From NCBI GenBank assembly GCA_963818475.1, contig CAWFSF010000002.1, positions 192,001 through 256,000 of the forward strand: DNA of 64,000 nt, given 5' to 3'. Positions 1,829 to 30,726 of this stretch are shown piece after piece. Position 1 is the first letter of the stretch, and every line of letters starts with the position of its first letter. The notes under the pieces were generated by a model, which saw nothing but the letters and a program-made list of their open reading frames with translations, was not told the DNA's origin and ran no database searches. Position numbers and translations under genes: made by a program. This DNA comes from Nitrospirota bacterium (GTDB taxonomy: Bacteria; Nitrospirota; UBA9217).

Positions 1829-3287
1829 GGGCAAGCACCTCTTTCGGTTCCCTGACGGGAAGCGTAATGAAGAACGAAACTCCGTTGTCGTGGTTATTTT
1901 CAACGCTGATCGTCCCGTTATGCTGTTCGATCAGCTTTTTCGTAATGGCAAGCCCCAGCCCCGTGCCATGCGGTTTGGTCGTAAAGAAGGGCTGGAATAT
2001 CTTGGCGACCACGGCTTCGTCGATCCCGCTGCCCGTGTCGATTATCCAGATCCGGAGGGGTTCACCCGGCCCCGGATCAGCCGTCCGGACGGTGACGGTC
2101 CCGCTGGCGGGCATGGCCTCGGCTGCGTTCAGGAGGAGGTTCATGAACACCTGCTGGAGCTGGAGCGGATCCGCCATGAGCGGCCGCACGTTGGGGGCCA
2201 GCTCGCGCACCACGGTGATGGAATGTCCGTTCTGCGGTGCATACAGCGGGTGTCGCTCGGCGAGGCTGATGGTGGAAGCGATCACGTCGTTCACATCCAC
2301 GGACGAAAAGACCGGTTTCGGCGGCCGCGCGAAATTGAGCATGCTTTTAAGCAGCTGCTCGATACGTTTGGTCTGCTCTACGCCCCTCTTGAGCACGTCA
2401 CGGTTCTCTGCCGTCAGCGACGGATCGCCGGCCAGCACTTCCATCGATGCCTTGATGCCTGCCAGCGGGTTCTTGATCTCGTGGGCCAGCCCGCCCGCCA
2501 TCTCCCCGAGCACCACGAGTTGCTCCGCCCACTGCATGCGAAGACAGTCCTCCCGCAGCGAGTGCGCCATATCGTTGAACGAGGCTGCAACCTCGCCGAA
2601 CTCATCCTGCAGGTGGCCGATCCGATAGCTCAGGTCGCCGTTCTTCAGCTTTCTTGTGGCGGTCAGCAGTTCCTGGACCGGCCTGGTGAATCCCCGGATG
2701 AAAATGGTGGACAGCACGATGGCCGCAAAAGGAACGGCCATGGCAAGGAGGTACAGCATCATCTTGGTGCGCGCTATATCCTGGAATGCCTCCTTCGTCT
2801 GGCTTTCCAGCTTGCTGTTCGCCAGGGTGGTGATGTTTTCAACCTCGGAGATAAGGTCCGTACCAACCCGAAAGGCCCGGTCCTCTTCAGTACGCATCCG
2901 CGCGGCATTCGCCCGCAGCGTGAGCGCCCTGCTCAGTACATTTTTATAATCCTCGACCTGTTTTTTCAGGCCGGTGAGCCTGGCCGTCACCTGTTCATGG
3001 TGATGACAGTCAAAGCACGTCGTGATGCTGCCGCTCATGGTCCGCACATGTTTCACGATCGTATCCATGCTGCGCGCATAAGGGGTGTTCTTCACGTACA
3101 GGTCGGACTGCGCCTGCTTGACCTGTATAAGCAGGTGCTCGCGAAGGATCCCGACCTGGTGGAGCCTGACCAGGCTGTCCATTTCCCTCGTGGCCTGTTC
3201 GATCGTCACGACGGTATAGATGGCGCTCGCGATGAACAGGAGGGAAAAGATGCTCAGTCCTATGATGATTTTCCTTTTCATTGTCAT
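1797..3287 (-). CDS. HAMP sensor histidine kinase with periplasmic CxxCH motif
   Basis: Two TM segments, CFDCHH between them, HAMP, H-box LAHEIKNPL, N box NLLLNA, G boxes DTGSG and GTGLGL. Confidence 0.93.
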   Translation of the reverse strand: MTMKRKIIIGLSIFSLLFIASAIYTVVTIEQATREMDSLVRLHQVGILREHLLIQVKQAQSDLYVKNTPYARSMDTIVKHVRTMSGSITTCFDCHHHEQVTARLTGLKKQVEDYKNVLSRALTLRANAARMRTEEDRAFRVGTDLISEVENITTLANSKLESQTKEAFQDIARTKMMLYLLAMAVPFAAIVLSTIFIRGFTRPVQELLTATRKLKNGDLSYRIGHLQDEFGEVAASFNDMAHSLREDCLRMQWAEQLVVLGEMAGGLAHEIKNPLAGIKASMEVLAGDPSLTAENRDVLKRGVEQTKRIEQLLKSMLNFARPPKPVFSSVDVNDVIASTISLAERHPLYAPQNGHSITVVRELAPNVRPLMADPLQLQQVFMNLLLNAAEAMPASGTVTVRTADPGPGEPLRIWIIDTGSGIDEAVVAKIFQPFFTTKPHGTGLGLAITKKLIEQHNGTISVENNHDNGVSFFITLPVREPKEVLAHGPVKNISDR

Positions 3288-10474: not shown

Positions 10475-11257
10475 ATGCTCGTAATCGCGGACAATCTGAG
10501 TGTACGAAACAAAGCCTATATGGAAGCAGTGAAGAAGAAGGACAAAAAAGCGATCGAAGCCATGGCAAAGGAACTGGCTGAAAAGGGCGCGGACCTCATC
10601 ATCGTGCAGGTCTCGGACGACGGCAATGGCGACGAAGAGCTGCTGCCGCTCGCGACGGAGGCCGTTCAGCTGGGAGGGGGGGTGCCGCTCTGTCTCGATT
10701 CCCGCAACGTCAAAGCGCTCAAAAAAGCCATCCCGCTCTGCTCGGAGCCGCCGATCATCAACTACCTGTCTGCGGACGAAAAAAACCCCGATGAGATCCT
10801 TTCGCTTGTCCGGGAAACCAAGTCGAACATCATCATCCGGGCGCTCAAGGGCACCGTGCCCGCCACGCTCGAAGCCAAGCTGATGATCATCGAGGACCTG
10901 ATCGAGAAGGCCAACGCGGCCGATGTGCCGAACGAGCGGATCTTCGCCGACCCGTCGGTGGTGCACATCAGCAAGGCCATGGGGCAGGAGCACCTGCTGA
11001 ACGCCCATGAGAGCATCGTGGTGCTGAACGAGATGGTCGACCCGCCGCTCAACACGGTGGTCTGGATCTCGAACGTGACCTCGGGCCTGCCGAAAAACCT
11101 GAAGTCCACGGTGGCCTCGTCCTATCTTGCCTATCTCGCGGGAGCGGGCTTAAGCGCTGCCATGGTGGATGTGAAGGATGCGGAGCTCATGAAGGTGGTG
11201 TATCTGATCAAGACGTTCCGGGATGAGATCACCTTTGCGGCGGGGGATCTGGGGTAG
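10475..11257 (+). CDS. Pterin-binding protein, AcsE-like (methyltetrahydrofolate:corrinoid methyltransferase / DHPS fold)
   Basis: MLVIADNL start, LCLDS, IINY, ADP, ISNVTSG matching the MeTr pterin-binding pattern; RBS aggagg. Confidence 0.75.
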   Translation: MLVIADNLSVRNKAYMEAVKKKDKKAIEAMAKELAEKGADLIIVQVSDDGNGDEELLPLATEAVQLGGGVPLCLDSRNVKALKKAIPLCSEPPIINYLSADEKNPDEILSLVRETKSNIIIRALKGTVPATLEAKLMIIEDLIEKANAADVPNERIFADPSVVHISKAMGQEHLLNAHESIVVLNEMVDPPLNTVVWISNVTSGLPKNLKSTVASSYLAYLAGAGLSAAMVDVKDAELMKVVYLIKTFRDEITFAAGDLG

Positions 11258-11277
11258 AAGCGGCAGTACAACTCGAC

Positions 11278-11517
11278 TTACAAGGAAAAGGCGGGAAGCT
11301 GAAAGCTTCCCGCCTTTGTTATTACCGCTGTGGCCGTCGCGCTTCCCGCCAGAGCATGTAAGCAAGCGCCCCTAGAAGAATGCATGCAGGGACGCTGACC
11401 CATTGGGGAACGAATGAAGCCGTTCACGATGATTTCCCAGTGGAAATAGAGACGGAGCAGATGCGCGAGAGAAAGAATCGAAAATATGACTGCGGCGATG
11501 ATGGAAAATGGTTTCAT
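11278..11517 (-). CDS. Small membrane protein (C-terminus probably frameshifted)
   Basis: Hydrophobic N-terminus, AHLLRL, aaggag RBS upstream. Confidence 0.5.
   Translation of the reverse strand: MKPFSIIAAVIFSILSLAHLLRLYFHWEIIVNGFIRSPMGQRPCMHSSRGACLHALAGSATATAVITKAGSFQLPAFSL
11287..11317. terminator. Bidirectional intrinsic terminator
   Basis: aaaggcgggaagct-gaa-agcttcccgccttt hairpin between convergent genes. Confidence 0.8.
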
Positions 11518-11610
11518 GATTTATCTCCTTTCAAGTGTCGGCAGGTAAGTTGACTTCACCCGCAATTACTGCATGTATAAACGAACATCGAATATGGGTT
11601 GTAACTTATA

Positions 11611-11659
11611 CTTGAACAATGAGTTAAGCGGCTCAGGACGCTTGAACGATTGGTTAGTG
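11611..11659 (-). other. attC site 3 (short, terminal)
   Basis: Minus strand cactAAC-caatc-gttCaagcg-tcctgagc-cgcttaac-tcatt-GTTcaag; 5-nt spacers and extrahelical C. Confidence 0.7.
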
Positions 11660-11717
11660 CTTATCCTCTTTTGTCCAACGGCGAAGTTTGCCACTATTTC
11701 CATCCGATAATGTTCTC

Positions 11718-13418
11718 CTAAAGACCCTGGAAAGCCTCAATTATTGTTTCCAAGCTATCATCGCACGCCGCACATAAATGTTCAAAATGTTTACGAAAAC
11801 TGCCGTATTCTTGTAGCGCCTGCTTTCTAGCTACTTCTGCCTCACTTCCAGAAGCATGGCCTTTTAATATGGAACGTAAGTTATGGATTTCATGGAAGGG
11901 CGACATAAGTTGGTGCGCATGATCCTCCTCAAAGCCGACGGCGATAAGACATTCTTCAGTAAGCTTCAGTGCTCTTAACTTTATGTCAGGATTTCTGCCA
12001 CGTTCTTTTGCTTTTTTACGCAACCATTTTTCGTCTAAACCCTCAACCACAAGCTGATCGAGATTTAATATTTCCTCTGCCCATTCATCGCGGGAAGAGG
12101 TATACGGATAGTGAACTATTTTGGGCGCATCTTCTTCTCTTAGAATCCACCAGCCGACTTTTGAACGGTGTAGTTTTTCAAGCTTATACTTTAAGCTATT
12201 AAGTGCATCGTATCCTTGATAAAATTGACCTTCAAAGTCTGTCGTAATTGCTCTCTCAGAAAGTGGAGCTTTAGGCTTTTCGTTATATTGTTTCCAATGA
12301 AGCTGCTCTTCATAAGGAAGCTGACTCAAATATATTAGATAGGTATGGACTTGACCTGCTGCGTTAACATCGAAAGTTTTTAAGTGCCACGCACCACGGC
12401 AACCAACTGATCTGCTTTCCAACTGGTATTTAGCCCTATCGCTCTTGTATTTCAGCAAGACTTCGGGCTTAAAAAACGCGGGGGTTATCTCGAAGGGAAG
12501 ATCTGACTTAGTAAAATAATTGGATAAACATGCAGGGTCACATGCTATTTCGGCAATCCTTTTATTTTTCCAATCATACGCAATGAACGTTGCGTACTGC
12601 TTTGCCTTTTCAGATACAGGCCTGCCCCATATATTATTTATTATTTTATCCTTTGAAATACTGATATTCGCGACCTGAAATCCTCTTGAGTAGCTCCCGT
12701 AGCTCTCGGATATTACTAAGCTTCCAAAAATGTTATGCTTACCCTCAAATTGTATTGGAGTATTTCGATCGCCCCAGCCGGAAAAATTACCTGATTTATA
12801 TCGTGTAAAATCAAACATACGAACCAATAACATTTTGCTTACACTGGTGTACTCTCCAAGGATGGTTTTCTTGACCGTGATAATAGTGCCAGTTTCATTG
12901 TTAGGCAAGCCACTTATTTCTATGATTTTTACGACATCTTCAATATCGCCAAACTTATCGAGTCTACACCAAGCACTACGCTCGGACATAAAGTGAATTC
13001 CTAATACGTGAGATATTTTCTGTTCCACCTCAAAGTACAGCTTCTTAGATTCAACACCCTCAAAAGAGCGCCCAAATAATATCTGCTCCCCCTTTATGAG
13101 CGTCTTGCTTCCAGCATGAGCAAGGGGTCCTTCAATCCAAGCATCATCTGAAGAGCATGTAATCCCCCAGGTGGAAAAAGGATTATGATTCCAGCCTTGA
13201 AGATCGTCTACGGTTGAATCATCAATCTCAACCTCTGGTATTAGAACGGCATGAATAAAAATGTGTCGAAGCGACGCATAGATAATAATGGTTTCATCCT
13301 CTATTTCTTTTTCAAGAAAAGGTAGCACGTCCTCCTGTCGAACCCAGGAATTAAAGGCATCTTCCAGTAGTGGTTCGCTGTCAATCGATAAAATTTCCTT
13401 GAGGTCGTATAGGTTCAT
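11718..13418 (-). CDS. Integron cassette protein, 566 aa, C-terminal HEPN-like Rx5H motif
   Basis: Intact AT-rich ORF between attC sites; HNLRSILKGHA in a helical C-terminus. Confidence 0.7.
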   Translation of the reverse strand: MNLYDLKEILSIDSEPLLEDAFNSWVRQEDVLPFLEKEIEDETIIIYASLRHIFIHAVLIPEVEIDDSTVDDLQGWNHNPFSTWGITCSSDDAWIEGPLAHAGSKTLIKGEQILFGRSFEGVESKKLYFEVEQKISHVLGIHFMSERSAWCRLDKFGDIEDVVKIIEISGLPNNETGTIITVKKTILGEYTSVSKMLLVRMFDFTRYKSGNFSGWGDRNTPIQFEGKHNIFGSLVISESYGSYSRGFQVANISISKDKIINNIWGRPVSEKAKQYATFIAYDWKNKRIAEIACDPACLSNYFTKSDLPFEITPAFFKPEVLLKYKSDRAKYQLESRSVGCRGAWHLKTFDVNAAGQVHTYLIYLSQLPYEEQLHWKQYNEKPKAPLSERAITTDFEGQFYQGYDALNSLKYKLEKLHRSKVGWWILREEDAPKIVHYPYTSSRDEWAEEILNLDQLVVEGLDEKWLRKKAKERGRNPDIKLRALKLTEECLIAVGFEEDHAHQLMSPFHEIHNLRSILKGHASGSEAEVARKQALQEYGSFRKHFEHLCAACDDSLETIIEAFQGL

Positions 13419-13458
13419 TACTTATTCAATGATTGGGCAAATCTTCACATCCGGCTCA

Positions 13459-13515
13459 TGATAACGACGAGTTCACACACCAGCGAAGCGGTCGGCGTGG
13501 AACGATTTGTTATGT
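13459..13515 (-). other. attC site 2
   Basis: Minus strand acatAAC-aaatc-gttCcacgccgaccgc-ttc-gctggtgtgtgaac-tcgtc-GTTatca; abuts the upstream stop codon. Confidence 0.85.
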
Positions 13516-14471
13516 TAGCATCCACTGGTGTGAGTATGAACAACCAAGAGCTCGCCAGAAGGATCAAGATAGTAAGTTATTTCATTGTTTGTTTCAATGA
13601 AATCGGGAAGGCCATCATATGTAACATCAAAGGCGCCTGTGACATCAAACCTGTAAATTGGGCCTAGGTCTTTATCTTTTCCATCAGCTTTCATGTCAAG
13701 CCGGGAAGCTACGCATTTTTCATCTCGACCATCTCCGACATAAAATACTGGCTCGTTTCCCTTTTGAAAATATATTAGGTAAAAGTCAGCAGTTCTTCCT
13801 TGAAAACGTAAGGGGCGATTCGAGGTCAGTATTTTGTCTAAATCTTTGAGCTTTAGAGTGACGATGATTACTCTTAAAGAATGTGGGGTCTTTCCTATTG
13901 TTGTGATTTCATAGCTAACATCTGCAATATTAGATTTTGTAACTGGCATATTCGATTTCTTGTCGAGAATAATCTTCCTGTCATAAATGTCCCTCAAGAT
14001 GGATTCCGCATATCCAGGCTTCGATCTAGATTTCTCGAAGGCAAGTTCATCCGTGAGCCAGAGCGTGTTAGTATTTTTAACATAACGCCCGTAGCCGCGC
14101 GAAGGGATATTACTTATATCAAAAACATCATTTGGGATTCTAATTAGACCCTCCCACTCCACATTGTGCGTTATTAGATGGAGTTTATTATCGGGAAGCT
14201 CGAGGACTGAATTTTTATACTTGATTTTGAACTTCGTCGCATTGCCCTGCATCCCAGAGGAATACATCCAATCGGTAAATGGAGTTACTCCAGTAATGAT
14301 TAGGCCGCTATCATCTTTCTTGTAAGCAAATGTGAAATAGTTCGCATTATTATCAGCCCTTCCATATTTTGCTATTGTGTGAAAACCATATGGGGCAATT
14401 TCACAATTTGCGGAGGCATGTATAGGTAAGGTTAACGTAAAAACAATTAATGCAAAGTTTCGCCATCTCAT
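13515..14471 (-). CDS. Integron cassette protein, secreted hypothetical (318 aa)
   Basis: Signal peptide ending HASA; RBS aaaggag just after the attC1 core site. Confidence 0.75.
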   Translation of the reverse strand: MRWRNFALIVFTLTLPIHASANCEIAPYGFHTIAKYGRADNNANYFTFAYKKDDSGLIITGVTPFTDWMYSSGMQGNATKFKIKYKNSVLELPDNKLHLITHNVEWEGLIRIPNDVFDISNIPSRGYGRYVKNTNTLWLTDELAFEKSRSKPGYAESILRDIYDRKIILDKKSNMPVTKSNIADVSYEITTIGKTPHSLRVIIVTLKLKDLDKILTSNRPLRFQGRTADFYLIYFQKGNEPVFYVGDGRDEKCVASRLDMKADGKDKDLGPIYRFDVTGAFDVTYDGLPDFIETNNEITYYLDPSGELLVVHTHTSGC

Positions 14472-14488
14472 GAATACGACTCCTTTCT

Positions 14489-14551
14489 ATATAACGTGCC
14501 GCTGTGGGGCGCGCGGCTTTTTGCGCGTCTCACACCAGCGGATGGTTGGCC
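14489..14551 (-). other. attC site 1
   Basis: Minus strand ggccAAC-catcc-gctGgtg-tgagacgcgc-aaaaagcc-gcgcgccc-cacagc-ggcac-GTTatat. Confidence 0.9.
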
Positions 14552-14557
14552 CTTTGT

Positions 14558-15475
14558 TCAATAAATCAATGAGTCAAGGTTTGATACGTCCAGCTCTTTT
14601 GCTTTCCGATAAATGATATATTCTTTTGTTTCCCAGAATTCCTTTTGAAACTCAGTGATAATTTTCTTTATACTTTCCAGAACCACTACGAGTTTCTTGT
14701 TAAGCTGAGGCATAATTTGGGTAAAAGTTAAATTATGTAGATTATAATAAGAATCTTTCCACGTTTTATTGTCTTCATTATAAATGTCTGATAGCCATTT
14801 GATGTCCCAGTCTATTGCCAACACGTTGCAAAGGTTATGCAATGTCATGTAAATATGGGTAAACATTAATTCATCATCTGGCTCTATTCCTATAAATGGA
14901 TCTAACTCCTGGTTTTCCATTATGAACTCATAATATTGAGGTAAGTGAATTAAGAGAAGCCTTGATAATTCAGTTAGCTCTTTGAAGTTTTTTTCTTGAA
15001 TGTAGTAGATTATGAAATTTAATAATCCTTGGTCGTCATCAAGCATATGCTTGGTGCTTAATGTAAAACTTAAACTTTGCTGGAGCTTATATTTTTTATA
15101 TTGATTTCTAACTTGGTTTTTTATTGGGGCAAAATACAGTTTCTTTGTCGAAGTTTCAGCAACGCATAAAAAAACCGGAACTGCAAGATTCATCCAATAG
15201 TTAATTGTTTCAATCTTTACTCCAGAAAATTTCGCTTCTTGTCGGTTTTGTTTTTCATTTTGCTTCCATTCGAGACTTTCTGTTCCTTTAAGTTGGATTG
15301 ATATTAGATCACCTCTGACAGAACCATCGCTGCCTACCATTTCAAGATAGCAGTCAACACCATAATCTCGTTCGGTGACTCCTCTAAGCAGCCATTCAGA
15401 AGGAACTGAATTCTGTAGAATTTTCCACGAATCAGTTTCTTTAATATGTGTAGAAGGTCTTTGTGGAAATTTCAT
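14558..15475 (-). CDS. Integron cassette protein, DUF4365-like PD-(D/E)xK nuclease domain
   Basis: ERDYGVDCYLE...IQLKGT...INYW...VPVFL pattern at the N-terminus. Confidence 0.8.
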   Translation of the reverse strand: MKFPQRPSTHIKETDSWKILQNSVPSEWLLRGVTERDYGVDCYLEMVGSDGSVRGDLISIQLKGTESLEWKQNEKQNRQEAKFSGVKIETINYWMNLAVPVFLCVAETSTKKLYFAPIKNQVRNQYKKYKLQQSLSFTLSTKHMLDDDQGLLNFIIYYIQEKNFKELTELSRLLLIHLPQYYEFIMENQELDPFIGIEPDDELMFTHIYMTLHNLCNVLAIDWDIKWLSDIYNEDNKTWKDSYYNLHNLTFTQIMPQLNKKLVVVLESIKKIITEFQKEFWETKEYIIYRKAKELDVSNLDSLIY

Positions 15476-15879
15476 AATTTAAGGCCAACAAGTTATTGAC
15501 TATCCCCCTTGTTTTCAGGTCTTTACTATGGGGGATAGTAAAGAACGGATTTCCGTTCTTTACTAGTTTAGCAAGGAATATGCCAGTATTAGCTAAACGG
15601 AACAAGAGATCGCATATTAGATGCCAGCATTTCAATACTATATGCGCTTTCCCTTACATGTAGGCAGAATATATGCTTAATCCGCGACGTTGTCAAAGAT
15701 TCCGATGGGGTAATTTAAGGGTAATTGCCGAAGGTACGGTTTGTAACTTTATGTATTGCGAAGGATGGAAACTACAACGAGTTCAGGAAGAAGTATTCTT
15801 AGCAGAGTATAACAGCTCTCATCCCGAAATTGGAGCGTTGTCAAGGCACGTAATGATAACGAAGGGAATCGGCAGGCGG

Positions 15880-16904
15880 TTACCGCTGCGAATATTCCTT
15901 CTGCACTTCCGGAACAAGCCGCTGGTACTCCTCGTAGGGGATCTTCGATTTCCAGTTGTCCGTCACCATCCCCAGGCCGATGATCAGGTAGAAGAGAATG
16001 ATGAGGACCACCGGGAAGAGGTACGGGCTTACGGTCCTGACCTTGGGTCCTGCACGGAGCGTGAGTTCCAGCGCGCCCTCTGAGCCGGGCAGCGGCTCAC
16101 GCAGGTGAGGCAGCCGAAACATTCCGCCGACCTCACGACCTCGCTCTTCTCCACATCGATCTGGGTCGGGCAGTGTTTGGTGCAGGCGTGGCAATGGGTG
16201 CATTTCTGCTCGTTCCGCTGGACCTTGAAGGGGCTGAACCGGCTCACGAGACCCAGAAGCGCGCCGTAGGGGCAGAGATAGCGGCACCAGAAGTTCTTAT
16301 ACAGCACCGATAAGCCGACGAGCACCACCAGCACCCAGAACGTGACCTGCGTCATCTCGGTGAAGAACTTCATCATGCGAACGTCCGCGAGTTTGTAATA
16401 GTCGCTGATATAGAACATCGCCATCGACCACATGGGCATGACCCCGATAGCGACGACAAAGAGACCCATCAGGACGTACTTGAGCGACCGGAGCGAGATG
16501 TCCGTAAAACCGGAGATACGGAAGTTCCTTCCGAAGACCTTTTCCCCGGCCATCCAGATATACTGCGACACCGTGCCGACAGGGCAGATCCAGCCACAGA
16601 AGCCTTTTTTCATGACCAGTGAAACGCCGAGGATCGCCGCGAACATGATGAAGCCCGAGGGATGCACCGGCTCGACAATGCCGGTCAGGATGAAGTACTT
16701 GAAGTCCATGAGCCCGCCGATGGGCAGGAAGGCGTCCACGGACGCGGGCCGCTCGACAAAGGGATGGCCCGGCGATACGAAGTGCTGAACGAACTGATAA
16801 AAACGATAGCCGATGAAGAGCGTGATCAGGAGAAAACCGAACTGGACGGCATAGCGGACGAATCGTATGGCGCTGGGATGTTTTATCATGGGATATTGTA
16901 CCAT
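15880..16904 (-). CDS. Membrane 4Fe-4S protein (NapH/MauN/YccM-like), frameshift near C-terminus
   Basis: FCGWICPVG, WCRYLCPYG, CTHCHACTKHCP, CFGCLTCVSRCP. Confidence 0.88.
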
Positions 16905-27889: not shown

Positions 27890-29299
27890 TGTCAACCCAA
27901 AGTAGAAATGTCCTACTCTTACCAAGATAGAAATGTCCGCTTTTAGGAAGCAATTGGAAATTGTACATTTGCTCTGCGGAGTCTCTTCCATGGATGATCT
28001 GATGGTTGATACCGACTTGTCGGTTTCTTATTGACTGCCGGTGTTTTAGGGTTTTCTTTCGCTGGCCGTGTTTTGATCTCCCGATATGTTAATTCCAAGC
28101 CCCTGTGAGTGATATGCAGAGATCCATCGAGTCGTTCTTCCACTGCGACCTTTTGAGTCTTTATAGCGTCTTTGATCTGGTACAGTTTGCCATTATAAGC
28201 TATGGTGAAATCGTTCCGTAGCGTACGCTCCTCTCGAATGCAGAAGATCTTGTCGAGTTCCCTTATGGATAGCGCGCGTTGGTGTACATCGGCTGCAGAA
28301 ACGGGTTTTACCTTGAATTTCGCATTGTATATTGGATGATACTTTATCAGGAATTCGTTTGCCTGCACAACACTGTTTACCCTGGCAAGCCTCATCTCTT
28401 TAACCAATCGATCCTGGAGCGTTCGAAAACTTCTTTCTATCCTGCCTTTTGCCTGGGGTGAATTCGCATGGATGACCGTTACCCCGAGTTCGGTTAGACT
28501 CCTTTCGAACTGGCTCATGGGTTTTCTATCTTCCAACTCATCCTCGATGCTCTGCTTGGCATTGGATTTATACGTTGAGTGCTTGTCCAAATAGACACTC
28601 TGTGGAATGCCGTAGCGCTTGATATACCGCTTGAAGCTATCCATGGCTGGCATGGTCCCCTCATAATCATAAAAGCGCCCATACACCGTTCCTGTGGCAT
28701 CATCGATATATCCCATTAATACGCTCTCAGGACCCCGGCCTTCGAACCAGGCATGATGGGAGCCATCCATCTGGAGCATTTCACCAAAATGATGCTTCCT
28801 CTCGCGCCATTGCCGGTGCTTTCTACCCTTGCGCTTCTCGTAAGGGATGCTTTCCTGATTAAGCCATAGACGGAGGGTTTCGTCGCTTAGCTTGATTTCA
28901 TGAACATCAAGAAGCTTCTCGCAGGCAAAGGTGGGGCCAAAATCACTGTATTTCTCCCGATACAGCTTGAGTGCCTTGTCTTTTACCTTCTGAGGGAATC
29001 GACGATTCGAGGTTTTGCCGCGGGATCGGTGACTGATGCCGTCGTCTCCCTCCTTCCGTACTCGTTTGAGTATCCGTCGAATCTGCCTGCTGCTCAAGCC
29101 TACAAGTTCAGCAGCTGTCTTCTGCGTGATCCTTTTATCCAATGCTTGGTGGATAATGTGCAGTCTTTTTGTTTCTCTCCTGCTCATAGTGATCATGTCC
29201 ATTTCTGTCACAGTACCCTCCAATTACATCAGGGTATTGTAACTTAGAATAGGACATTTCTACTTTGGGAGAATAGGACATTATCATTTTGGGAGTACA
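27890..29299 (-). mobile_element. IS1202-family (ISNCY) insertion sequence, copy 1
   Basis: TGT...ACA ends, repeated subterminal agaaatgtcc/ggacatt motifs, 16-bp direct repeats gggctttatatctggg at 27874-27889 and 29300-29315. Confidence 0.92.
27943..29223 (-). CDS. IS1202-family DDE transposase
   Basis: N-terminal HTH, QMDGSHHAW, IDDATG, YLDKH, SPQAKGRIERSFRTLQDRL. Confidence 0.95.
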   Translation of the reverse strand: MEGTVTEMDMITMSRRETKRLHIIHQALDKRITQKTAAELVGLSSRQIRRILKRVRKEGDDGISHRSRGKTSNRRFPQKVKDKALKLYREKYSDFGPTFACEKLLDVHEIKLSDETLRLWLNQESIPYEKRKGRKHRQWRERKHHFGEMLQMDGSHHAWFEGRGPESVLMGYIDDATGTVYGRFYDYEGTMPAMDSFKRYIKRYGIPQSVYLDKHSTYKSNAKQSIEDELEDRKPMSQFERSLTELGVTVIHANSPQAKGRIERSFRTLQDRLVKEMRLARVNSVVQANEFLIKYHPIYNAKFKVKPVSAADVHQRALSIRELDKIFCIREERTLRNDFTIAYNGKLYQIKDAIKTQKVAVEERLDGSLHITHRGLELTYREIKTRPAKENPKTPAVNKKPTSRYQPSDHPWKRLRRANVQFPIAS

Positions 29300-29315: not shown

Positions 29316-30726
29316 TGTCAACCCAAAGTAGAAATGTCCTACTCTTACCAAGATAGAAATGTCCGCTTTTAGGAAGCAATTGGAAATTGTACATTTGCTC
29401 TGCGGAGTCTCTTCCATGGATGATCTGATGGTTGATACCGACTTGTCGGTTTCTTATTGACTGCCGGTGTTTTAGGGTTTTCTTTCGCTGGCCGTGTTTT
29501 GATCTCCCGATATGTTAATTCCAAGCCCCTGTGAGTGATATGCAGAGATCCATCGAGTCGTTCTTCCACTGCGACCTTTTGAGTCTTTATAGCGTCTTTG
29601 ATCTGGTACAGTTTGCCATTATAAGCTATGGTGAAATCGTTCCGTAGCGTACGCTCCTCTCGAATGCAGAAGATCTTGTCGAGTTCCCTTATGGATAGCG
29701 CGCGTTGGTGTACATCGGCTGCAGAAACGGTTTTTACCTTGAATTTCGCATTGTATATTGGATGATACTTTATCAGGAATTCGTTTGCCTGCACAACACT
29801 GTTTACCCTGGCAAGCCTCATCTCTTTAACCAATCGATCCTGGAGCGTTCGAAAACTTCTTTCTATCCTGCCTTTTGCCTGGGGTGAATTCGCATGGATG
29901 ACCGTTACCCCGAGTTCGGTTAGACTCCTTTCGAACTGGCTCATGGGTTTTCTATCTTCCAACTCATCCTCGATGCTCTGCTTGGCATTGGATTTATACG
30001 TTGAGTGCTTGTCCAAATAGACACTCTGTGGAATGCCGTAGCGCTTGATATACCGCTTGAAGCTATCCATGGCTGGCATGGTCCCCTCATAATCATAAAA
30101 GCGCCCATACACCGTTCCTGTGGCATCATCGATATATCCCATTAATACGCTCTCAGGACCCCGGCCTTCGAACCAGGCATGATGGGAGCCATCCATCTGG
30201 AGCATTTCACCAAAATGATGCTTCCTCTCGCGCCATTGCCGGTGTCTTTCTACCCTTGCGCTTCTCGTAAGGGATGCTTTCCTGATTAAGCCATAGACGG
30301 AGGGTTTCGTCGCTTAGCTTGATTTCATGAACATCAAGAAGCTTCTCGCAGGCAAAGGTGGGGCCAAAATCACTGTATTTCTCCCGATACAGCTTGAGTG
30401 CCTTGTCTTTTGCCTTCTGAGGGAATCGACGATTCGAGGTTTTGCCGCGGGATCGGTGACTGATGCCGTCGTCTCCCTCCTTCCGTACTCGTTTGAGTAT
30501 CCGTCGAATCTGCCTGCTGCTCAAGCCTACAAGTTCAGCAGCTGTCTTCTGCGTGATCCTTTTATCCAATGCTTGGTGGATAATGTGCAGTCTTTTTGTT
30601 TCTCTCCTGCTCATAGTGATCATGTCCATTTCTGTCACAGTACCCTCCAATTACATCAGGGTATTGTAACTTAGAATAGGACATTTCTACTTTGGGAGAA
30701 TAGGACATTATCATTTTGGGAGTACA
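29316..30726 (-). mobile_element. IS1202-family insertion sequence, copy 2 (tandem)
   Basis: Near-identical to copy 1; followed by a third direct repeat at 30727-30742 and a 12-bp partial at 30743-30754. Confidence 0.92.
29369..30650 (-). CDS. IS1202-family transposase, one frameshift near 30245
   Basis: ORFs 30207-30650 and 29369-30205 together match copy 1. Confidence 0.88.

Follow-up and report, generated by a model that had tools for sequence, protein, structure and literature searches.

An integrase-less array of three integron cassettes behind a promoter and attI-like platform in a Nitrospirota genome

This study concerns an AT-rich islet in the genome of a Nitrospirota bacterium. Its minus strand carries three open reading frames (ORF1, ORF2 and ORF3) with an attC site behind each one, and the first of them is preceded by a promoter and an attI-like docking sequence. 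The islet is part of a stretch of 64,000 nucleotides, hereafter called the window (G000:C2:192001-256000, that is, positions 192,001 to 256,000 of the 850-kb contig C2 of genome G000, whose assembly is 91% complete and comprises seven contigs). A first-pass annotation, made from the letters of the window without database searches, had described the three genes as an integron cassette array without an integrase (IntI), and here we report what a computational analysis of the islet, its attC sites, its upstream region and its relatives revealed.

The AT-rich islet and its three attC sites

The guanine-cytosine (GC) profile of the window falls to 0.38-0.41 over 12-16 kb compared with 0.54-0.62 in the flanks, and the three minus-strand ORFs in this region agree with the first description of three AT-rich, co-oriented genes. 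The islet is bordered on one side by a conserved gene for a 79-amino-acid (aa) protein and on the other by the stop codon of a conserved gene for a 4Fe-4S membrane protein. Two genomes of the same genus (G004 and G005) share these flanks at ~90% identity; their homology with the window stops at 11529-11534, just upstream of the 79-aa gene, and restarts at 15882, at the stop codon of the 4Fe-4S gene. The coordinates of the islet and of its features are given in Table 1.

Behind each ORF the minus strand carries the same arrangement, namely xxxxAAC, then 5 nt, a stem whose 5' arm bears one bulged base, another 5 nt and GTTxxxx. The inverse core AAC, the core GTT and the extrahelical base on the 5' L'' arm, which together make up the architecture of an attC site, are thus present at all three sites, and a geometry scan requiring the 5-nt spacers and one bulge picks up all three. 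For a test by structure and sequence together, 22 same-strand sites at regular spacing were taken from arrays beside five intI genes with TIGR02249 scores above cut-off in the genomes G021, G016 (two intI), G012 and G010, and a covariance model (R1) was made from them, with no window sequence included. Its consensus fold has 17 pairs, 12 of them with compensatory changes. Run over the whole 64 kb with filters off, R1 gave exactly two matches with E < 0.01, which are attC1 and attC2, both on the minus strand. Because R1 gave attC3 only 8.5 bits, a second, subfamily model (R2) was needed, built from 13 other attC sites of G000 that belong to the attC2 subfamily and one short site of G016; its best two matches in the window are attC2, in first place, and attC3, in second. 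Both models were made in this analysis and are not the attC model of IntegronFinder, and their E-values are rough owing to a shortened calibration.

These matches fall on the same coordinates as the hairpins of the first-pass annotation, which proved accurate to the base, and they serve as an equivalent of the covariance-model check that it had proposed. Moreover, the attC2 subfamily has at least 13 further copies in G000, with 81-96% identity by blastn, and this family of at least 14 copies sits in attC clusters. The cassette ends are related to one another as well: GTTGGCC at 15489-15483, seven bases before the start codon of ORF1, complements GGCCAAC at 14551-14545 exactly, and the start of cassette 2, GTTATAT, agrees at six of seven positions with GTTATGT, the complement of the inverse core of its own attC. 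Both relations had been noted before and can be read directly in the sequence; for cassette 3 the agreement is only four of seven. All three attC sites are real.

Cassettes 1 and 3 also occur elsewhere as discrete units with junctions between the G and the TT of the core (G/TT). A scan of metagenomes for ORF1 returned five contigs. In all four that contain its 5' end, the DNA homology of cassette 1 begins at 15489, and what stands upstream is an attC's 3' half, which comes in three versions, those of L131 and L132 being alike. All four contigs that contain the 3' end lose homology inside attC1 (at 14545, 14545, 14537 and 14492), and the homologues end in an attC of their own, beginning with GGCCAAC. 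Likewise, in three of the four public sequencing runs compared (from soil, marine sediment and a cold seep), contigs extend from 14502/14527 to 15486/15489, where they end or diverge, and attC1-like pieces are found on other contigs in three of the four. In the groundwater run X2, cassette 3 occurs in pieces with a contig junction at 13465, the G of GTTATCA in attC2, and a 36-nt copy of attC3 lies on a 10.5-kb contig of unrelated sequence. The contig L094, from a genome of a different lineage, contains the whole of cassette 3 with 87% DNA identity (window 13473-11613), flanked on both sides by short sites of the attC3 type (R2 E-values 4.4e-5 and 2.3e-5), and in two further loci (L097 and L058) an attC lies directly behind the ORF3 homologue. 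The resulting three attC-associated homologues among 80 ORF3 loci are a lower bound, since R1 and R2 are both lineage-specific. A candidate attC at L056 reached E 0.034 with default filters and was absent with filters off, and it is not counted. For cassette 2, a single ORF2 homologue was found, and none of the contigs compared from the four public runs covered ORF2. Among the listed public sequencing runs that share sequence words with the window there was no RNA run and none with half of the words.

Table 1 Coordinates of the islet, of its features and of related features elsewhere. Positions without a contig prefix are those of the window; C1, C3, C5 and C6 are other contigs of G000. The slot is the chromosomal position of the islet between its conserved flanks.
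Feature	Position	Strand	Description
AT-rich islet (platform and three cassettes)	11535..15881	-	4.35 kb; from GC profile and flank homology
Pc-like sigma-70 promoter	15668..15696	-	TTGACA-17 nt-TATATT, 11 of 12 positions, directed into the cassettes
Palindrome	15536..15565		Perfect, 14 + 14 nt, TAGTAAAGAACGGA / TCCGTTCTTTACTA, between promoter and docking site
attI-like simple site	15483..15498	-	CAATAAC-TT-GTTGGCC; crossover between G15489 and T15488
Cassette 1	14495..15488	-	994 nt, carries ORF1
ORF1	14558..15475	-	305 aa; N-terminal DUF4365 PD-(D/E)xK-type domain, residues 15-131
attC1	14489..14551	-	63 nt; R'' GGCCAAC 14551-14545, R' GTTATAT 14495-14489; R1 34.4 bits, E 6.8e-7
Cassette 2	13465..14494	-	1030 nt, carries ORF2
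ORF2	13515..14471	-	318 aa; signal-peptide-like N-terminus
attC2	13459..13515	-	57 nt; R'' ACATAAC, R' GTTATCA; R1 25.1 bits, E 2.9e-4; R2 65.5 bits, E 9e-20
Cassette 3	11617..13464	-	1848 nt, carries ORF3
ORF3	11718..13418	-	566 aa; widespread family of uniform length
attC3	11611..11659	-	49 nt, short type; R'' CACTAAC, R' GTTCAAG; R2 18.4 bits, E 0.0032
intI remnant	C6:1772159-1772560		Internally deleted, residues 12-65 and 421-493; beside an attC array
intI remnant	C5:460592-460863		Similar internally deleted copy
intI fragments	C6:86408-86683, C5:457310-457456, C6:787618-787794, C3:170993-171070		Found by tblastn
Examples of places with attC sites	C6:1773754-1784033, C6:1941804-1951972, C1:260788-268541, C5:525070-528467		Found with R1
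Slot content in G002, contig C480			155 nt only
Slot content in G002, contig C425			Other low-GC insert with canonical attC (55 bits), same orientation
Slot content in G004			Unrelated gene and a run of N; no attC
Slot content in G005			2.97-kb insert, 860-aa methyltransferase-type protein; no attC

The platform upstream of cassette 1 and the missing integrase

The 390 nt upstream of cassette 1 are AT-rich and foreign to the slot. They contain a Pc-like promoter, which ranks first among 14 promoter-like sites found in 11200-16100. A second copy of this region on contig C3 retains both of its hexamers, as do the regions close to intI in G021 and G023. The palindrome between the promoter and the docking site is likewise conserved beside intI in G021 (L019) and G023 (L013), in cassette orientation, and may be a protein-binding site or part of attI. 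A second, imperfect hairpin is also present in the upstream stretch, and an 88-nt region there folds with a z-score of -5.5. The promoter hexamers and the palindrome align with the stretch that in G021 and G023 separates intI from the first cassette.

Within G000 itself, positions 15486-15585 are 94% identical to C3:52422-52520. The two copies align from ~15716 through AACTTGTTG (GTTG) and then differ completely, and in the C3 copy the position of the first cassette, behind CAATAACTT|GTTG, is taken by a recombinase gene instead of ORF1. The homologues of cassette 1 elsewhere have an attC where the window has the attI-like site. From these comparisons we infer that the upstream region would be the Pc/attI platform of the integrons of this family, with cassette 1 at the insertion point.

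Further copies of the platform were observed in the same genome. A partial one lies inside another array at C2:581.4 kb, and positions 15671-15789, which include the -35 side of the promoter, are 87% identical to C6:1511920-1512041 in another attC array and 78% identical to C6:638725-638823, so that parts of the platform are also repeated on their own. In G021 (L019, ~660-700) and G023 (L013, ~2960-3000), the interval from the start of intI to the promoter has in common TATAGTGAAC-N4-GTTCAC, in which the palindrome GAAC-N4-GTTC presumably resembles one class of LexA boxes.

No protein of G000 matches the integron integrase family TIGR02249 above its cut-off, and none of the 11 PF00589 matches in the genome lies on the 850 kb of contig C2, in agreement with the earlier statement that the window holds no tyrosine recombinase. 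A tblastn search of G000 with the IntI open frame of G021 found fragments only, none of them on C2. The genome-wide search for intI that had been suggested therefore ended in truncated remnants (Table 1), and the arrangement of a complete integron, an intI with the IntI-specific insertion adjoining attI, was not found here. The attC sites of G000 are numerous nonetheless: R1 (E <= 0.001) located at least 62 at no fewer than 31 places, 15 of which hold at least two sites, and this count is an underestimate as 150 of 2843 candidates were scored and attC2 of the window is absent from the list. With so many attC sites and only broken intI genes, the array in the window is one of many integrase-less arrays in G000, and the genome looks like a genome-wide graveyard of integrons.

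In the family, TIGR02249 is matched above cut-off in 11 of the 41 genomes searched and in none of the six of this genus. The IntI genes of the family are long, with open frames of 470-560 aa in nine of the 12 full-length matches above cut-off. That of G021 (L017/L019, G021:C3:424809-425738) has ~150 aa in frame upstream of the usual IntI core, a stretch that may represent either an extended N-terminus or read-through from an upstream gene.

Origin of the array

Clusters of attC sites without an integron integrase (CALINs) are defined by at least two attC sites without a nearby intI, and their published origins include routes of the integron decay type as well as secondary-site routes; for 95% of CALINs no intI pseudogene can be recognised in the vicinity (Cury et al. 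2016, PMC4889954, in the sections cited). The islet conforms to this definition, with two attC sites found by R1 and a third by R2, all on one strand within 4 kb and without intI, and with few cassettes, whose genes are not resistance genes and have no known function. The earlier assignment as a CALIN thus holds, the cassette boundaries included. The islet differs from the CALINs of that description in keeping a promoter and an attI-like head, which the definition, in the sections cited, neither requires nor searches for, and in belonging to a genome whose attC loci number at least 31 and whose intI genes are all truncated. It resembles the complete integrons of its own family (G021, G023, G016, G012 and G010) in that these have attC sites of ~57-60 nt with several bulged bases in their stems and share with it the promoter hexamers as well as the palindrome that separates intI from the cassettes, but it has no intI, another crossover sequence than G021 and G023 and another chromosomal location.

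In our view the islet is very probably a decayed integron, consisting of a platform and three attC-ended, promoterless cassettes and devoid of an integrase. The Pc-like promoter would transcribe all three cassette genes as one unit. As the assembled genome contains no intact IntI, the array would now be frozen; the bottom strands of its attC sites, which correspond to the plus strand of the window, would fold and recombine if IntI came in trans, for which the intact intI genes common in the family are a possible source. The integrase may have been lost by deletion in place, or a rearrangement, or an exchange by way of the conserved flanks, may have relocated the platform and its cassettes. The route that we favour is that a once-complete integron lost its integrase or became separated from it, and insertion at a secondary site is the less likely one.

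Several observations weigh against a decayed integron. Regarding the attC sites, attC3 is short, with a low R1 score and a rough R2 E-value, the inner stem of attC2 is mutated relative to its 13 relatives in the genome, the plus-strand folding energies of attC1 and attC2 are ordinary (z -1.5 and -0.1, with -3.2 for attC3), and the training sites of the models were chosen by a geometry scan that presupposes the geometry of the earlier description. Folding energy was dropped as a test of attC sites for being uninformative. Regarding the platform, there is no conservation with G021 and G023 over the 50 nt at the crossover, and the attI assignment, which draws on the positional homology of the promoter and the palindrome, stays conditional. 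Regarding the locus, tblastn with the IntI of a relative detected no intI remnant beside the array, and the relatives that possess intI have the 4Fe-4S gene and the integron on different contigs.

The last two observations are what an alternative route would predict, in which the three cassettes were placed at a secondary genomic site (attG) by an integrase whose gene lies elsewhere and the islet never had a platform of its own. No intI remnant exists beside the array or elsewhere on contig C2, and the slot is no integron locus in relatives. However, cassette 1 stands not behind host DNA but behind ~230 nt (15486-15716) with homology to the promoter and palindrome region near intI in complete integrons and to a second copy in the same genome, and the entire upstream stretch of 390 nt is foreign to the slot. 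IntI moves cassettes bounded by attC sites and not the promoter/attI platform. It would not have carried the platform along, which makes a delivery in trans of cassettes alone unlikely. The first-pass annotation had spoken of a mini-array delivered in trans, of which the array stands, whereas the delivery has become doubtful in view of the homology between the platform and the intI-proximal region. Insertion at secondary sites as such was shown experimentally in the cited part of a recent study (bioRxiv 10.1101/2022.09.11.507474), and is named among the origins of CALINs in the sections cited (PMC4889954). The single attC sites lacking integron integrases (SALINs) and attG insertions treated in the former, as far as the cited part goes, resemble the islet in having cassettes far from an integrase whose expression needs a nearby promoter, but the first cassette of the islet is joined to an attI-like platform and not to host DNA. 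We therefore consider the secondary-site route unlikely.

Another recombinase might still act on the array, the candidate being the 285-aa XerA-like or IntI-like tyrosine recombinase at C3:51375-52232 (L033:7376-8233, minus strand), which lies behind the second platform copy in the position of the first cassette. This protein is the best intI-like match of the genome, and its type is present in multiple copies in G016. Its scores of 204.5 bits with TIGR02249 and 208 bits with NF040815 are both below cut-off, and it has no IntI-specific insertion, profile positions 179-234 being unmatched with ~13 residues in their place. Its multi-copy state in G016, where the type occurs at seven places with identical scores, suggests a mobile element and fits an insertion element equally well. 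A continued recombination of the array by this non-canonical recombinase would thus seem improbable. Behind the recombinase gene, four more minus-strand ORFs are followed by an attC at C3:48869-48927.

That the islet is no integron but an ordinary horizontally acquired islet whose hairpins resemble attC sites by chance or are terminators can practically be set aside: geometry by itself is weak evidence, with 84 genome sites at the stringency of attC3 versus 49-57 (~54) in three shuffles, the folding energies of two sites are unremarkable and unrelated insertions without attC occupy the same slot in G005 and G004, yet chance or terminators do not explain covariance-model matches at the exact coordinates and strand, the recurrence of single cassettes elsewhere with G/TT junctions, or the membership of attC2 in a family of at least 14 copies within attC clusters.

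The comparison of the locus in related genomes, which had also been proposed, gave a different slot content in every genome (Table 1). Together with the separation of the 4Fe-4S gene from intI in relatives, this indicates a variable hot spot and not an ancestral integron locus. None of the genomes G000, G002, G004 and G005 offers an exact empty site from which the insertion junctions could be read, their intergenic contents being wholly different. The protein in the slot of G005 (L049:1497-4079, G005:C4) has an NPPY adenine-methyltransferase region with weak TIGR02987 and PglX-type matches, and given this protein the slot may act throughout the genus as a hot spot for genes of the defence type.

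In the neighbourhood of the islet, the 4Fe-4S gene of the window (15880-16904, minus strand) is broken up into two frames that overlap, 16029-16904 and 15880-16287. Its counterpart in G005 is a single ORF of 335 aa with an identical C-terminus, and the split reflects either a frameshift or an assembly error. A second low-GC stretch at 27-31 kb contains a 426-aa ORF (27943-29223, minus strand) with the domains HTH_23, HTH_28 and HTH_32, which are typical of transposases. This ORF and an unassigned ORF of 278 aa (29369-30205) probably form an insertion sequence.

The cassette genes and the significance of the array

The first-pass annotation regarded two of the three cassette genes as nuclease-like, which applies to ORF1 only. 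ORF1 matches DUF4365 (PF14280) with 65.9 bits against a cut-off of 24.3 (E 5e-18), and its translation contains the motif Q61-L-K63 (Q-x-K). The match to Aga_REase in PADLOC covers residues 34-133 only, and the C-terminal 170 aa match no family and no APAZ domain in Pfam, PADLOC or NCBIfam. ORF1 has 81 homologues, many of them 80-99% identical, on short metagenome contigs. In TmuRE, a DUF4365 nuclease, Q62 and K64 are named as the likely active site in the cited part of the study (PMC10810196), and Q61 and K63 of ORF1 are at the equivalent position. The N-terminus of ORF1 is therefore like the DUF4365 nuclease domain of short Argonaute systems of the SPARDA type; however, ORF1 is a stand-alone protein, no Argonaute gene is present in the islet, where the neighbouring ORFs match no Pfam or PADLOC family, and the combination that marks SPARDA, an APAZ domain with a short Argonaute next to it, was not found. 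ORF1 is likely a stand-alone DUF4365 nuclease-like protein.

ORF2 has no match in Pfam, NCBIfam or PADLOC and a single homologue, with 58% identity, in 5.8 billion proteins. With its signal-peptide-like N-terminus, it is likely a secreted orphan protein.

ORF3 belongs to a far larger family. Its 1448 homologues are very uniform in length at ~565 aa, and the 80 loci examined span many bacterial groups. It has no match in Pfam (up to E 10), NCBIfam or PADLOC and none in a sequence-profile search of the PDB, and only the unnamed clusters of the Atlas itself were returned from the Atlas. A first AlphaFold2 model was poor, with a predicted local distance difference test (pLDDT) score of 70, and a model from an alignment of 57 sequences reached a pLDDT of 91 and a predicted template modelling score of 0.79. 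Foldseek comparison of the latter with the PDB gave nothing at E <= 0.001. A weak structural lead to Avs3 (8dgc) recurred with E 0.007-0.03 and a template modelling score of ~0.2. The neighbourhood of the family, comprising 135 ORFs at 71 loci, contains no conserved partner; the commonest neighbour family accounts for four of the 135 (Phage_integrase), and among these heterogeneous neighbours a few are defence or mobile-element families. These data indicate that ORF3 likely behaves as a mobile accessory or defence gene, and members of its family appear to be mobile as integron cassettes in four or more lineages.

As CALINs are a known and frequent kind of element, the islet is no departure from current understanding. 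Less ordinary are the retained Pc/attI-like platform, the 49-nt attC type, the dozens of attC loci accompanied by deleted intI, and the ORF3 family. We put forward tentatively, as a possibility more doubtful than the reading of the islet as a decayed integron, that ORF3 stands for a widespread and as yet unnamed family of mobile single-gene defence systems or toxins whose fold is absent from the PDB, and that integrons have collapsed lineage-wide, leaving orphan Pc/attI platforms as landing pads for an integrase acting in trans.

The islet illustrates that attC geometry can be read from the raw sequence, and it is a natural example of an integron without an integrase but with a promoter and a docking site. 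It thereby bears on the question of how CALINs originate, whether by decay or relocation of integrons or by insertion at secondary sites. With at least 31 attC loci, no fewer than three platform copies and only truncated intI, G000 is a system for asking if such arrays are reservoirs that can be remobilised. In addition, cassette 3 points to a large uncharacterised protein family that is a candidate for a role in phage defence or toxicity, and the interest of ORF3 would be higher still if it is true that it is a defence gene.

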